Part shown: positions 8,839 to 56,226 of the stretch, piece by piece | How positions within the stretch are numbered: the stretch's first letter is position 1 | Layout: every line of letters starts with the position of its first letter | DNA from: a plasmid | Length of the DNA: 59,422 nt | Reading direction: 5' to 3' (one strand) | Sequence record: NZ_LC586269.1 | The notes under the pieces: generated by a model | Told to the model about the DNA's origin: nothing | What the model saw: the letters and a program-made list of their open reading frames with translations, nothing else | Databases searched by the model: none | Made by a program: the position numbers and the translations under genes

Positions 8839-8876
8839 GGAGTCGCCTCAGAAAACGGAAAATAAAGCACGCTAAG
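8839..8876 (+). repeat. 38-bp Tn21-subfamily terminal inverted repeat (IRmer; GGAGTCGCCTCAGAAAACGGAAAATAAAGCACGCTAAG)
   Basis: Near-exact match to the Tn21-family IR; immediately abuts the resolvase stop codon. Confidence 0.85.
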
Positions 8877-8892
8877 GCGTAGTTCCCTCGGG

Positions 8893-9327
8893 CTACACCG
8901 CGTCCGCACTGCGCGGTTCTTTCTTCCCTTGCAGTGACGCAATCAGCGGGCAGGAAACGTTCCCCTTCCGCGCATGGCAGGCGCACACCAAATCAGACAG
9001 CACGGCCTCCATGCGCGCCAGGTCAGCCATCCTCTCGCGCACGTCCTTGAGCTTGTGCTCGGCCAGGCTGCTGGCTTCCTCGCAATGGGTGCCATCCTCC
9101 AGCCGCAGCAGCTCGGCGATCTCATCCAGGCTGAAGCCCAACCGCTGGGCTGATTTCACGAAGCGCACCCGCGTTACATCCGTCTCGCCATAGCGGCGAA
9201 TGCTGCCGTAAGGCTTGTCCGGTTCCGGGAGCAAGCCCTTGCGCTGATAGAACCGGATGGTCTCCACATTGACCCCGGCCGTCCTGGCGAAAACGCCAAT
9301 GGTCAGGTTCTCCAAATTGTTTTCCAT
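8893..9327 (-). CDS. merR: Mercuric resistance transcriptional regulator MerR
   Basis: 144 aa; MerR HTH and Hg-binding cysteines. Confidence 0.95.
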
Positions 9328-9398
9328 ATCGCTTGACTCCGTACATAACTACGGAAGTAAGCTTAAGCTATCCAATTCAGATTCGAAAGGACAAACGT
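9328..9398. promoter_or_regulatory. mer operator/promoter (dyad TCCGTACATAACTACGGAAG between -35 TTGACT and -10 TAAGCT)
   Basis: Classic divergent merOP architecture between merR and merT. Confidence 0.65.
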
Positions 9399-9749
9399 AT
9401 GTCTGAACCTCAAAACGGGCGCGGCGCGCTCTTCACTGGCGGGCTGGCCGCCATCCTCGCCTCGGCTTGCTGCCTCGGGCCGCTGGTTCTGATCGCCTTG
9501 GGGTTCAGCGGCGCTTGGATCGGCAACTTGACGGTGTTGGAACCCTATCGCCCCATCTTTATCGGCGTGGCGCTGGTGGCGTTGTTCTTCGCCTGGCGGC
9601 GCATCTACCGGCCGTCAGCCGCCTGCAAACCGGGTGAGGTTTGCGCGATTCCCCAAGTGCGAGCTACTTACAAGCTCATTTTCTGGGGCGTGGCCGTGCT
9701 GGTTTTGGTCGCGCTCGGATTTCCCTACGTCGTGCCATTTTTCTATTGA
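9399..9749 (+). CDS. merT: Mercuric transport protein MerT
   Basis: 116 aa from MSEPQNGRGALFTGGLAAILASACCLGPLVL; track ORF over-extended upstream. Confidence 0.9.
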   Translation: MSEPQNGRGALFTGGLAAILASACCLGPLVLIALGFSGAWIGNLTVLEPYRPIFIGVALVALFFAWRRIYRPSAACKPGEVCAIPQVRATYKLIFWGVAVLVLVALGFPYVVPFFY

Positions 9750-9764
9750 TCACAGGAGTTCACC

Positions 9765-10040
9765 ATGAAAAAGCTGCTTTCCGCCCTTGCCCTCGCTGCC
9801 GTTGTTGCCCCCGTGTGGGCCGCCACCCAGACCGTTACGCTGTCCGTACCGGGCATGACCTGCTCGGCCTGTCCGATCACTGTCAAGAAGGCGATTTCCA
9901 AGGTCGATGGCGTCAGTAAAGTTGACGTGACCTTCGAGACGCGCGAAGCGGTGGTCACCTTCGATGATGCCAAGACCAGCGTGCAGAAACTGACCAAGGC
10001 TACCGAGGATGCGGGCTACCCATCATCAGTCAAGAACTGA
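9765..10040 (+). CDS. merP: Periplasmic mercury-binding protein MerP
   Basis: 91 aa; GMTCSAC motif. Confidence 0.95.
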
Positions 10041-10042
10041 TC

Positions 10043-52431: not shown

Positions 52432-52479
52432 GTTGGTGTTCCATTATGAGTGTCCGCTAAAGTGTGTGCCATTTTAGGT

Positions 52480-52660
52480 GTTCACTTCAACGGAGGAGAG
52501 AATTTTCCCGACGTCCTAGGGTGTGCCTAGTGAGGTATACCCTAACTTGGCGTCAGACCATCCGGCGCTAAATCGTCAGAATAGAGTTGCCTTCCGAATT
52601 GATTGACATACGCCGTCAAGGGTCATAGATTTCTTCCTGACACATTTCCCTCAGGAGGAT
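52480..52660 (+). promoter_or_regulatory. res site region of the Tn21-family transposon (includes TTAGGGTATACC motifs and tnpR promoter)
   Basis: Position upstream of tnpR; related inverted relic at 12401-12485. Confidence 0.5.
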
Positions 52661-52663
52661 ACC

Positions 52664-53224
52664 TTGCACGGTCAGCGCATCGGTTACGTCCGCGTCAGCA
52701 GCTTCGACCAGAACCCAGAACGGCAGCTCGAACAGATCCAGGTGGATAAAGTGTTCACCGACAAGGCGTCGGGCAAGGACACACGGCGGCCCGAACTGGA
52801 ACGGCTGCTCGCCTTCGTGCGCGAAGGCGACACGGTCGTGGTGCACAGCATGGATCGTCTGGCGCGCAACCTCGACGACCTGCGCCGCCTGGTGCAGGGC
52901 CTCACCCAGCGCGGCGTACGCATCGAGTTCCTTAAGGAGCATTTGACCTTCACCGGCGAGGACTCGCCGATGGCGAACCTGATGCTGTCGGTAATGGGCG
53001 CGTTCGCCGAGTTCGAACGCGCCTTGATCCGCGAGCGGCAGCGCGAGGGCATCGCGCTCGCCAAGCAGCGCGGGGCCTACCGTGGCAGGAAGAAATCCCT
53101 GTCGTCTGAGCGTATTGCCGAACTGCGCCAACGTGTCGAGGCTGGCGAGCAAAAGACCAAGCTGGCTCGTGAATTCGGAATCAGTCGCGAAACCCTGTAT
53201 CAATACTTGAGAACGGATCAGTAA
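52664..53224 (+). CDS. tnpR: Tn21/Tn501-family resolvase TnpR
   Basis: 186 aa; very close to the recalled Tn21 TnpR. Confidence 0.95.
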
Positions 53225-53226
53225 AT

Positions 53227-56193
53227 ATGCCACGTCGTTCAATCCTGTCCGCCGCCGAGCGCGAAAGCCTGCTGGCGTTGCCGGACACCAAGGATGAGTT
53301 GATCCGTCACTACACGTTCAGCGAAACCGACCTCTCCATCATCCGGCAGCGGCGCGGCCCGGCCAACCGGCTGGGCTTCGCCGTGCAGCTCTGTTACCTG
53401 CGCTTTCCTGGTGTCATCCTGGGCGTCGATGAGCCGCCGTTTCCGCCCTTGTTGAAACTGGTCGCCGACCAGCTCAAGGTCAGCGTCGAAAGCTGGGACG
53501 AATACGGGCAGCGGGAGCAGACCCGGCGCGAGCACCTGGTCGAACTGCAAACGGTGTTCGGCTTCCAGCCCTTTACCATGGGCCACTACCGGCAGGCCGT
53601 CCAGTTGCTGACCGAGATGGCCTTGCAGACCGACAAGGGCATCGTGCTGGCCAGCACCTTGATCGAGCACCTGCGGCAGCAGTCGGTCATTCTGCCTGCC
53701 CTCAACGCCGTCGAGCGGGCGAGCGCCGAAGCAATCACCCGCGCCAACCGGCGCATCTACGATGCCTTGGCCGAACCGCTGTCGGACGCGCATCGCCGCC
53801 GCCTCGACGATCTGCTCAAGCGTCGGGACAACGGCAAAACGACCTGGCTGGCCTGGCTGCGCCAATCGCCCGTCAAACCGAATTCGCGGCACATGCTGGA
53901 ACACATCGAACGCCTCAAAGCGTGGCAGGCGCTCGACCTGCCTTCTGGCATCGAGCGGTCGGTGCACCAGAACCGCCTGCTCAAGATCGCCCGTGAGGGT
54001 GGCCAGATGACGCCCGCCGACCTGGCCAAGTTCGAGGCGCAGCGACGCTATGCCACCCTGGTGGCGCTTGCCATCGAGGGCATGGCCACCGTCACCGACG
54101 AAATCATCGACCTGCACGACCGCATCCTGGGCAAGCTGTTCAACGCCGCCAAGAACAAGCATCAGCAGCAATTCCAGGCGTCCGGCAAGGCGATCAACGC
54201 CAAGGTGCGGTTGTTCGGCCGCATCGGCCAGGCGCTGATCGAGGCCAAGCAGGCGGGCCGCGATCCGTTCGCCGCCATCGAGGCCGTCATGTCCTGGGAT
54301 GCCTTCGCCGAGAGCGTCACCGAAGCGCAGAAGCTTGCGCAGCCCGAGGACTTCGATTTCCTGCACCGCATCGGCGAAAGCTACGCCACGCTGCGCCGCT
54401 ACGCGCCGGAATTCCTTGCCGTGCTCAAGCTGCGGGCCGCTCCCGCCGCGAAGGACGTGCTCGACGCCATCGAGGTGCTGCGCGGCATGAACAGCGACAA
54501 CGCCCGCAAGGTGCCCGCCGACGCGCCGACCGAGTTCATCAAGCCGCGCTGGCAGAAGCTGGTCATGACCGACACCGGCATCGACCGGCGCTACTACGAA
54601 CTATGCGCGCTGTCGGAGATGAAGAACGCGTTGCGTTCCGGCGACATCTGGGTGCAGGGGTCGCGCCAGTTCAAGGACTTCGAGGACTACCTGGTGCCGC
54701 CCGCGAAATTCGCCAGCCTCAAGCAGGCCAGCGAATTGCCGCTGGCCGTGGCCACCGACTGCAACCGGTACCTGAACGACCGGCTGACGCTGCTGGAAAC
54801 ACAGCTTGCCACCGTCAACCGTATGGCGACGGCCAACGAGCTGCCGGACGCCATCATCACCGAGTCAGGCTTGAAGATCACGCCGCTCGACGCGGCGGTA
54901 CCCGACACCGCCCAAGCGCTGATCGACCAGACGGCAATGATCCTGCCGCACGTCAAGATCACCGAACTGCTGCTGGAGGTGGACGAATGGACGGGCTTCA
55001 CTCGGCATTTCGCGCATCTGAAATCGGGCGACCCGGCCAAAGACAAGAACCTGTTGCTGACCACGATCCTCGCCGACGCGATCAACCTGGGCCTGACCAA
55101 GATGGCGGAGTCTTGCCCCGGCACGACCTACGCCAAGCTGGCTTGGCTGCAAGCCTGGCACATCCGCGACGAAACCTACGGGGCGGCGCTGGCCGATCTG
55201 GTCAACGCACAGTTCCGCCATCCCTTCGCCGAGCACTGGGGCGACGGCACCACCTCATCGTCGGACGGCCAGAACTTCCGCACCGGCAGCAAGGCCGAGA
55301 GCACCGGCCACATCAACCCGAAATACGGGAGCAGCCCAGGGCGGACGTTCTACACCCACATTTCTGACCAGTACGCGCCATTTCACACCAAGGTCGTGAA
55401 CGTCGGCGTGCGCGATTCGACCTACGTGCTCGACGGCCTGCTGTACCACGAGTCCGACTTGCGGATCGAGGAGCATTACACCGACACGGCGGGCTTCACC
55501 GATCACGTCTTCGCCCTGATGCACCTCCTGGGCTTCCGCTTCGCGCCGCGCATCCGCGACCTGGGCGACACCAAGCTCTACATCCCGAAGGGCGACGCCG
55601 CCTATGACGCGCTGAAACCCATGATCGGCGGCACGCTCAACATCAAGCACGTCCGCGCCCATTGGGACGAAATCCTGCGGCTGGCCACCTCGATCAAGCA
55701 GGGCACGGTGACGGCCTCCCTGATGCTCCGAAAGCTCGGCAGCTACCCACGCCAGAACGGCCTGGCCGTGGCGCTCCGCGAGCTGGGCCGCATCGAGCGC
55801 ACGCTGTTCATCCTGGACTGGCTGCAAAGCGTGGAACTGCGCCGCCGCGTGCATGCCGGCCTGAACAAGGGCGAGGCGCGCAATGCGCTGGCCAGGGCAG
55901 TGTTTTTCAACCGCCTGGGTGAAATCCGCGACCGCAGTTTCGAGCAGCAGCGCTACCGGGCTAGCGGCCTCAATCTGGTAACGGCTGCCGTCGTGTTGTG
56001 GAACACGGTCTATCTGGAACGGGCTGCGCACGCGCTGCGTGGCAACGGCCATGCCGTTGATGACGCGCTGTTGCAGTACCTGTCGCCGCTCGGTTGGGAG
56101 CACATCAACCTCACCGGCGATTACCTCTGGCGCAGCAGCGCCAAGATCGGCGCGGGCAAGTTCAGGCCGCTACGACCGCTGCAACCGGCTTAG
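53227..56193 (+). CDS. tnpA: Tn3-family (Tn21-subgroup) transposase TnpA
   Basis: 988 aa; stop overlaps the terminal IR. Confidence 0.95.
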
Positions 56194-56226
56194 CGTGCTT
56201 TATTTTCCGTTTTCTGAGGCGACCCC
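56189..56226 (-). repeat. 38-bp Tn21-subfamily terminal IR (IRtnp; reverse complement GGGGTCGCCTCAGAAAACGGAAAATAAAGCACGCTAAG)
   Basis: Inverted copy of the IR at 8839-8876. Confidence 0.9.

Follow-up and report, generated by a model that had tools for sequence, protein, structure and literature searches.

The window analyzed here, the 59,422 nt of sequence record NZ_LC586269.1, is a complete circular IncpPA7790-type plasmid whose whole accessory region is a single 19.4-kb module (M; 52536..59422 continued by 1..12473). Module M is an antibiotic and mercury resistance mosaic of several mobile elements, and it occupies the plasmid's own resolvase crossover site. Both of its boundaries fall within the 4-bp TATA centre of site I of a resolvase recognition site (res). 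Serine-resolvase exchange at this core probably docked M, as a module from a TIME-COMP-like transposon (TIME, Tn3-derived miniature element), into a site next to the backbone resolvase gene. The window was treated as a circle because a 7.9-kb alignment to two other plasmids, comprising res-tnpR-tnpA, the terminal inverted repeat (IR), the DUF417 and AraC genes and ISPst3, passes from its last base to its first. The first base lies in istB, as it does in the related records LC586262-68.

Comparison with related plasmids, which an initial annotation of 8839-56226 had proposed as a check, was used to locate the inserted DNA. That annotation described one Tn21-subfamily mercury transposon in two halves, separated by ~40 kb of backbone and scrambled together with it. 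The backbone aligns with the Pseudomonas aeruginosa reference plasmid pPA7790 in two blocks at 95-97.5% identity, all on a single strand, and is thus not scrambled. In pPA7790 the two backbone ends are joined directly at GTGAGG-TATA-CCCTATCTGG. Because the backbone halves close there, the inserted DNA on the circle is the 19.4 kb that runs through the window ends and not the 40 kb between the supposed halves. The group IncpPA7790 is named in PMC10311859, where pPA7790 is described as being without exogenous insertions. Its empty site consists of the resolvase gene, then uninterrupted cctagtgaggTATAccctatctggaacgcc, then 105-bp tandem repeats. The site is also closed in CP077979 and CP078000, where the backbone flanks are only 235-322 bp apart as judged from the ends of the window matches. 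In the gene tables of pSE5419-1 and pNY8688-NR, topA and the resolvase gene are separated by nothing but small hypothetical genes; in both plasmids, as in pPA7790, the resolvase gene stands beside the empty site.

The two joints were defined to the base by alignment with the empty site. The left backbone half extends to 52535-52539 and the right half starts again at 12470-12474, with zero bases gained or lost. The core GGTATACCC is common to both joints, the shared identity being 9 bp at the right joint and 11 bp at the left (GGTATACCC plus TA), and there is no target duplication. The uninterrupted empty site, the unchanged bases and the common core are the properties of attL/attR-like junctions. 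M is bounded at both ends by inward-pointing res sites. A resolvase gene stands on either side of the left joint, that of the backbone at a distance of 104 bp and tnpR at 128 bp. Within the backbone core, the right half (TACCCTATCTGG) agrees with a Tn21/Tn6603-type half-site at 11 of 12 positions.

The same crossover point recurs in other plasmids. The tnpR-side res begins at TATACCCTAACTTGG (TATACCC) whatever its left neighbor, and its four unrelated left contexts part directly to the left of TATA; this res sequence is present in more than 400 plasmids. The right contexts of the second res, which is of Tn6603 type, diverge immediately right of TATA in the window, pNCGM3596 and pSTY. The serine resolvases of Tn3, gamma-delta and Tn21 make a 2-bp staggered cut at the palindromic centre of site I. 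Informative breakpoints that all lie within TATA are the pattern expected of such an enzyme, and they support the view, already put forward in the initial annotation, that recombination at res was the cause.

The origins of the parts at the right end of M were determined by alignment. The segment 8839-11904 is 100% identical to the Tn5053 copy that lies within Tn6603 on pSTY (PMC7765201 for the nesting). Its 38-bp repeat, IRmer, runs GGAGTCGCC...CGCTAAG. In Tn5053 this relic sits 64 bp inside the 25-bp end of the element, and IRmer is for that reason an internal Tn5053 relic and does not mark the terminus of a Tn21-like mercury transposon. The window lacks the 25-bp mer-end IR as well as the next 64 bp inward, and similarity to Tn5053 begins exactly at the 38-bp relic. 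The mer half had been placed at 8839-11904; it does not simply stop there and is followed by a 262-bp TIME and then the truncated tniA (tniA') and IRt. The TIME stands in for the merA 3' end, merDE, tniRQB and most of tniA. The merA' reading frame (11785-11943) leaves intact merA after ...FNKDV at 11903 and continues with 11 other residues in place of FNKDVKQLSCCAG and the stop, and the last 12 codons, including the C-terminal Cys-Cys, are gone. The mercury reductase is probably inactive because this cysteine pair is lost. Just the first few tniA codons (12166 onward) are left of the tniA-tniB-tniQ-tniR module. As a member of the Tn5053 family, the element has merRTPFA', and its IRt abuts a res6603-type site next to site III and points away from tnpR; it has neither a 25-bp IR at both ends nor the tni module.

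The TIME has 39-nt IRs that start GGGGTTGGGG; the TIME IR sequence is also given as GGGGTTGGGGGAGCAACGGAAC.... Copies at up to 100% identity were found in 124 plasmid records, mostly from Pseudomonas and in varied contexts, and 38 of these hold at least 80% of the query. The window copy has no 5-bp direct repeat. Its flanks, AGGAC/GT... and CGTGG..., are consistent with an adjacent deletion.

The res next to IRt had been described as an inverted relic at 12401-12485. It is a real res, inverted with respect to the tnpR-side res and 67% identical to it (80/120), and it extends from 12353 to 12473. As had been suspected, it is the res of a related transposon: pEC732_IMP14 and pMAQU02 have the Tn6603-type site in uninterrupted form immediately before tnpR. 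The tnpR-tnpA (tnpRA) block at the other end of M and the Tn6603 tnp module, the partner of this res, share only 76% identity. The two module ends were therefore never one transposon, because the mer genes are those of Tn5053, the adjoining res is of Tn6603 type and tnpRA has only this distant relationship to the Tn6603 module.

The left end of M carries the genes that the initial annotation had recognized there. The merRTPFA and tnpR-tnpA gene content was confirmed by annotation and profile searches, which gave 1317 bits for NF033527 and identified a Tn3-family DDE transposase gene together with a serine resolvase gene (Pfam Resolvase and HTH_7). The block had been drawn from 52480 to 56226; it is present, with the correction that res starts at 52536 and that 52432-52535 is backbone. 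The terminal repeat IRtnp and IRmer are, as claimed, inverted and 37/38 identical, and their 28-nt core occurs only at these two sites in the window (0 expected by chance). The 5-mers that flank them, AAGAA and CTTCA, do not match, as also noted before, and there is no target duplication. The interval 8839-56226 thus has the IR pair and the tnpA and tnpR genes of an intact Tn21-subgroup unit, and lacks the target duplication and the common descent of its parts. The res-tnpR-tnpA-IRtnp block is followed by the DUF417 and AraC genes and ISPst3 at 99.8-100% identity in many Pseudomonas plasmids, and tnpR-tnpA is found in many plasmids with unrelated cargo. The tnpR-tnpA block may be Tn5051-like or Tn1696-like.

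The same module is carried by a second type of plasmid. LC586262-68 (pNCGM3596 and relatives) contain M at 99.9-100% identity, differing only in the duplicated cassette, on a MOBF/MPF_T backbone with genes as in the pMOS94-family plasmid of Pseudomonas mosselii DSM 17497. In pNCGM3596-type plasmids, M lies between two perfect inverted 93-bp arms and is accompanied by a 5-bp duplication, AAATC. Each arm consists of a 38-bp IR (GGGGGGCATAGAG...), a 52-bp stretch and the outer half of site I, which ends in ...GGGGTA. The arms and their site are the same in the P. mosselii plasmid, as is the duplication (GATTT on the other strand). The interior of that plasmid is partly different and has on its right a res of a third kind. 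The tnpR-tnpA block adjoins opposite backbone flanks in the two plasmids; therefore, the interior is inverted between them, through either the action of TnpR on the inverted res cores or recombination of the 93-bp arms with each other. The arm represents the end of a non-autonomous Tn3-family element of 759 bp, which has 38-bp IRs, its own Tn21/Tn501-type res, a 79-aa open reading frame (WP_081791613.1) and a TGAAA duplication in pHNGDW697-2 (NZ_CP118679.1, 12001-12759). A further copy is found in the P. mosselii plasmid at 19468-20227. Because the arms derive from this res-bearing miniature transposon, the pNCGM3596-type structure is a TIME-COMP-like transposon. The arm IR was not found in the window even with three mismatches allowed, and the window itself does not hold a TIME-COMP. 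Literature searches for pNCGM3596 returned no result.

These data suggest how M reached the IncpPA7790-type backbone. Strand exchange by a serine resolvase at the central TATA would swap the miniature-element arms for the two backbone half-sites. Two routes can be envisaged. In the first, two plasmids would fuse by exchange between the Tn6603-type res and the backbone site, and the tnpR-side res would then recombine with the hybrid site in a second exchange. In the second, an excised circle of M would integrate; the joint of this circle would read CCAGTTAGGGTATACCCTAACTTGG. A Tn21-type TnpR might use the backbone site as a lone site I, or one exchange might proceed in a non-canonical alignment permitted by the symmetrical centre. 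We infer the acting enzyme and the route, and the interval 52432-52535, to judge by its position, is presumed to hold the accessory resolvase sites of the backbone.

Several observations weigh against docking by a resolvase. Canonical res x res recombination always joins the half-site proximal to the accessory sites to the distal half. The right joint fits this rule and the left joint does not, since it connects the gene-proximal half-sites of the backbone and the transposon res. At least one step therefore looks non-canonical, or a lone site I was used. The backbone resolvase is only 34% identical to TnpR, and cross-recognition is therefore hypothetical. The reciprocal product, in which the arms are joined, was not found in PLSDB, the GTDB species-representative genomes or the JGI metagenomes, and the head-to-head donor joint of the two res sites was not found in PLSDB or the JGI metagenomes. 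The docking is a single case: no other PLSDB plasmid has either window junction, and the left one was also not detected in the GTDB representatives. Resolvase exchange remains the probable origin of the joints. A broader claim is that M is a resolvase-driven cassette that could leave one lone site I, in the palindromic arms of a miniature transposon, and enter another, in the resolvase-adjacent site of a plasmid, with Tn21-type TnpR alone sufficing and without transposase, IRs or duplication. This extension is doubtful.

The backbone resolvase could have catalyzed the docking in place of TnpR, with the transposon site I cores serving as pseudo-sites. Its gene is 104 bp from the site-I-like core, a normal distance for a res with a distal site I, and the core is conserved in the empty relatives. 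The low identity of the two resolvases argues against this assignment, and the interval between gene and core, by reading, has no similarity to Tn21-type subsites. The 11/12 match of TACCCTATCTGG favors TnpR as the enzyme. The backbone site GTGAGGTATACCCTAT may be a target of either the Tn21-type TnpR or the backbone resolvase, and we consider the participation of the backbone enzyme instead of TnpR to be unlikely.

Recombination in which no resolvase took part, either RecA-dependent or illegitimate and over a chance identity, would agree with the shortness of the identity at the joints and with the missing reciprocal product. Such an event is not expected to place both joints in the same palindromic centre of a recognizable res site I, nor does it explain why the tnpR-side res is joined at the same position to three other unrelated contexts. 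For two independent events to hit the same 9 bp in 40 kb of backbone, immediately upstream of a resolvase gene, would be very unlikely, and microhomology is a decidedly improbable cause.

The model of the initial annotation, a single Tn21-subfamily mercury transposon split by resolvase inversion or by an insertion into res, drew on the near-identical, suitably inverted 38-bp IRs and on the second inverted res at the inner edge of the mer half. The parts contradict it. The mer segment is Tn5053 at 100% identity, complete with IRt and tniA', and IRmer is one of its internal relics; the adjacent res is of Tn6603 type, and the tnp module belonging to that res is only distantly related to tnpRA. 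There is no backbone inversion relative to pPA7790 and no target duplication. The same module stands in another backbone with the supposed halves again at its two ends. A split transposon is thus highly improbable. An assembly chimera of a pNCGM3596-like and an IncpPA7790 plasmid present in one isolate deserves next to no credence: the near-perfect identity of M to LC586262-68, the shared istB start, which suggests the same pipeline, and the uniqueness of the junctions would suit it, but assemblers mis-join at long repeats, only 9-11 bp are shared here, two mis-joins would have to coincide exactly with a biologically meaningful crossover point, and the cassette array is unlike that of all LC5862xx records (aadA1 duplicated here, blaVIM-24 there).

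Two transpositional products were also considered and rejected. A simple unresolved cointegrate does not account for unmatched IR flanks or for res sites that are inverted and only 67% identical. Duplicative inversion by intramolecular transposition would bracket the segment with like IRs, and those in the window are unlike. The coordinates of all features are collected in Table 1.

Table 1. Positions of the joints, module parts and backbone features in the 59,422-nt window
Feature	Position	Strand	Basis or remark
Left junction core GGTATACCC (TATA 52536-52539), backbone half-site + transposon half-site	52534..52542		versus empty site of pPA7790
Right junction core GGTATACCC (TATA 12470-12473), transposon half-site + backbone half-site (CCCTATCTGG)	12468..12476		versus empty site of pPA7790
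Tn21-subgroup res running into tnpR (inner site I half, site II, site III)	52536..52663	+	same start in four unrelated left contexts
tnpR, 186-aa resolvase	52664..53224	+	Pfam Resolvase + HTH_7; WP_003124096.1 in relatives
tnpA, 988-aa Tn3-family transposase	53227..56193	+	NF033527, 1316.9 bits
IRtnp, 38-bp terminal inverted repeat at tnpA end (GGGG...)	56189..56226	-	pair with 8839-8876
DUF417/RclC-like gene (56381-56899, +) and AraC/RclR-like gene (56929-57774, -)	56381..57774		adjoin this IRtnp in every case
ISPst3 istA, continuing over the window end into istB	57931..59422	+	7.9-kb alignment; annotations of relatives
ISPst3 istB (1-804) and right end of the insertion sequence	1..998	+	alignment and annotation; shared block stops at ~998
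Class 1 integron remnant	1264..7792		annotation, alignment, profile searches; order orf5, sul1, qacEdelta1, aadA1 (3236-4027), aac(6')-31 (4097-4651), aadA1 (4731-5522), blaVIM (5610-6410), intI1 (6577-7590, +), IRi (7768-7792)
Invertase-like serine recombinase, 218 aa	8179..8835	+	Pfam Resolvase; NF009949 136.8 bits, below curated cut-off
IRmer, 38-bp Tn21-type inverted repeat GGAGTCGCCTCAGAAAACGGAAAATAAAGCACGCTAAG	8839..8876	+	relic carried inside Tn5053
Tn5053 mer genes	8893..11903		merR 8893-9327 (-), merT 9399-9749, merP 9765-10040, merF 10043-10288, merA' from 10285
262-bp TIME with 39-nt imperfect IRs	11904..12165		alignment
Tn5053 tniA 5' end, leader and 25-bp IRt (12328-12352)	12166..12352	-	100% identity to pSTY and P. 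mosselii plasmid copies
Tn6603-type (Tn501-related) res: sites III, II, inner half of site I	12353..12473	-	98% identity to pSTY res6603
IncpPA7790-type backbone (topA, parA, type IV secretion system, coupling protein, ssb, parB, others)	12474..52535		two same-strand blocks versus pPA7790
Backbone serine resolvase gene, 206 aa	51811..52431	-	Pfam Resolvase, 82.6 bits
Backbone DNA from resolvase start codon to crossover core, with left half of site-I-like core (...CCTAGTGAGG)	52432..52535		98.1% identity to pPA7790 up to 52547

The middle of M holds ISPst3 and the integron, whose 3'-CS comes before the cassettes, and beyond the integron IRi there are a small open reading frame and an invertase-like serine recombinase gene. 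The latter adjoins the integron IRi and stops 3 bp before IRmer, a junction that is also present in pVIM_Pse-KSS14, and with it the plasmid has three serine recombinase genes. The cassette arrays of the window (3236-6410) and pNCGM3596 (3178-6463) differ solely in the duplicated cassette: in the window aac(6')-31 is flanked by two aadA1 copies and blaVIM is single, and pNCGM3596 has two blaVIM-24 and one aadA1. The integron IRi and the Tn5053 IRt have a common 18-nt end, TGTCGTTTTCAGAAGACG, in the same orientation. They were considered as the two ends of one Tn402/Tn5053 insertion, and this was rejected on the ground that both interiors lie on the same side. The integron's own IRt is absent because ISPst3 follows orf5.

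Related plasmids have further rearrangements around IRtnp and ISPst3. In pNY7610-IMP, the final 282 bp of tnpA occur once more, together with IRtnp (19881-20162), just after ISPst3, and the duplicated tnpA ends bracket DUF417-AraC-ISPst3, which hints at recombination between ISPst3 copies. In pCN1276 (4783-5060), a Tn5053-like element is truncated precisely at the outer edge of its 38-bp relic IR and lies 66 bp away from the position, upstream of DUF417, that IRtnp occupies in the window. The region upstream of DUF417 seems to be a repeated landing place of Tn21-type ends. Two other explanations were rejected, that DUF417 and AraC are transposon passengers and that IRmer and IRtnp lie on the same flank in different plasmids; the placements are separate events because the pCN1276 relic IR is 66 bp off the IRtnp point. 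On the backbone side of the right joint, a 105-bp tandem repeat (12497-12733; 2.3 copies, 94% matches) directly adjoins the crossover core. About five copies are present in pPA7790, and the copy number thus differs among relatives. The repeats are possible iterons or a partition site.

The region with blaVIM, aminoglycoside and mercury resistance has moved between unrelated Pseudomonas plasmid families, the pMOS94 and IncpPA7790 types. Neither IRs nor a target duplication are left at the joints, so standard annotation would see two broken transposons and surveillance by transposon ends alone would miss such an event. If backbone resolvase sites accept modules, any plasmid with a compatible multimer-resolution site would be a potential landing pad. 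Should M in fact behave as a resolvase-driven cassette, carbapenemase regions would have a second, transposase-independent route of spread between plasmid families. A natural site I joint between two resolvase genes is also relevant to the question of how rigorously Tn21-type resolvases apply their topological filter in vivo. The oriented 38-bp IRs and the intact tnpA formally bracket 47.4 kb that include the whole replicon and the transfer genes. If this TnpA can act on the relic IR of Tn5053, transposition of the plasmid backbone itself, or its fusion with other replicons, would be possible.

All ingredients of this structure are known: res exchange in the Tn21 subgroup, the hunting of res sites by Tn5053, as in Tn6603, the TIMEs with their TIME-COMPs, and class 1 integrons. 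The unusual feature is the transfer of a complete module from a TIME-COMP-like transposon into a backbone site without IRs or duplication, leaving two resolvase genes head-to-head on the two sides of one crossover core. With the res exchanges of the Tn21 subgroup (Tn6603R; the deletions and inversions of Tn1721/Tn21), the plasmid shares crossover at the site I centre, module swapping and the use of one tnpR-tnpA with many cargos. It differs in that the exchange partner is a backbone site beside a distantly related resolvase gene and in that one product has gene-proximal half-sites head-to-head, which canonical resolution cannot generate.

Res-bearing TIMEs, inversely oriented TIME-COMPs (TIME244) and inversions attributed to TnpR were described in Enterobacteriaceae (Gomi and Yano 2026, PMC13367494). 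The pNCGM3596 module resembles these in its position between the inverted ends of a miniature element with a Tn21-type res, in its 5-bp duplication and in the occurrence of the interior in both orientations. The Pseudomonas element is distinguished by its 759-bp length and 79-aa open reading frame and by the retention of just its outer 93 bp on each side, and the window has no arms. Tn6603::Tn5053 is a pair of nested transposons (Rajabal, Stanisich and Petrovski 2020, PMC7765201). In the window, Tn5053 is likewise at res6603 in the usual orientation, IRt away from tnpR, with mer genes 100% identical to those of pSTY, but the insertion is just outside site III and not between sites I and II. 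The 25-bp mer-end IR, merDE, tniRQB(A) and the Tn6603 tnpR and tnpA have been lost. Finally, Tn21 and Tn1696 represent mercury transposons of the Tn21 subgroup with a class 1 integron or Tn402-type element in res, and they also unite such an integron with a mercury operon and a Tn21-type tnpR-tnpA in one resistance region. In contrast to these transposons, the integron in M lies outside both 38-bp IRs, next to the invertase-like gene, and not between mer and tnpR.

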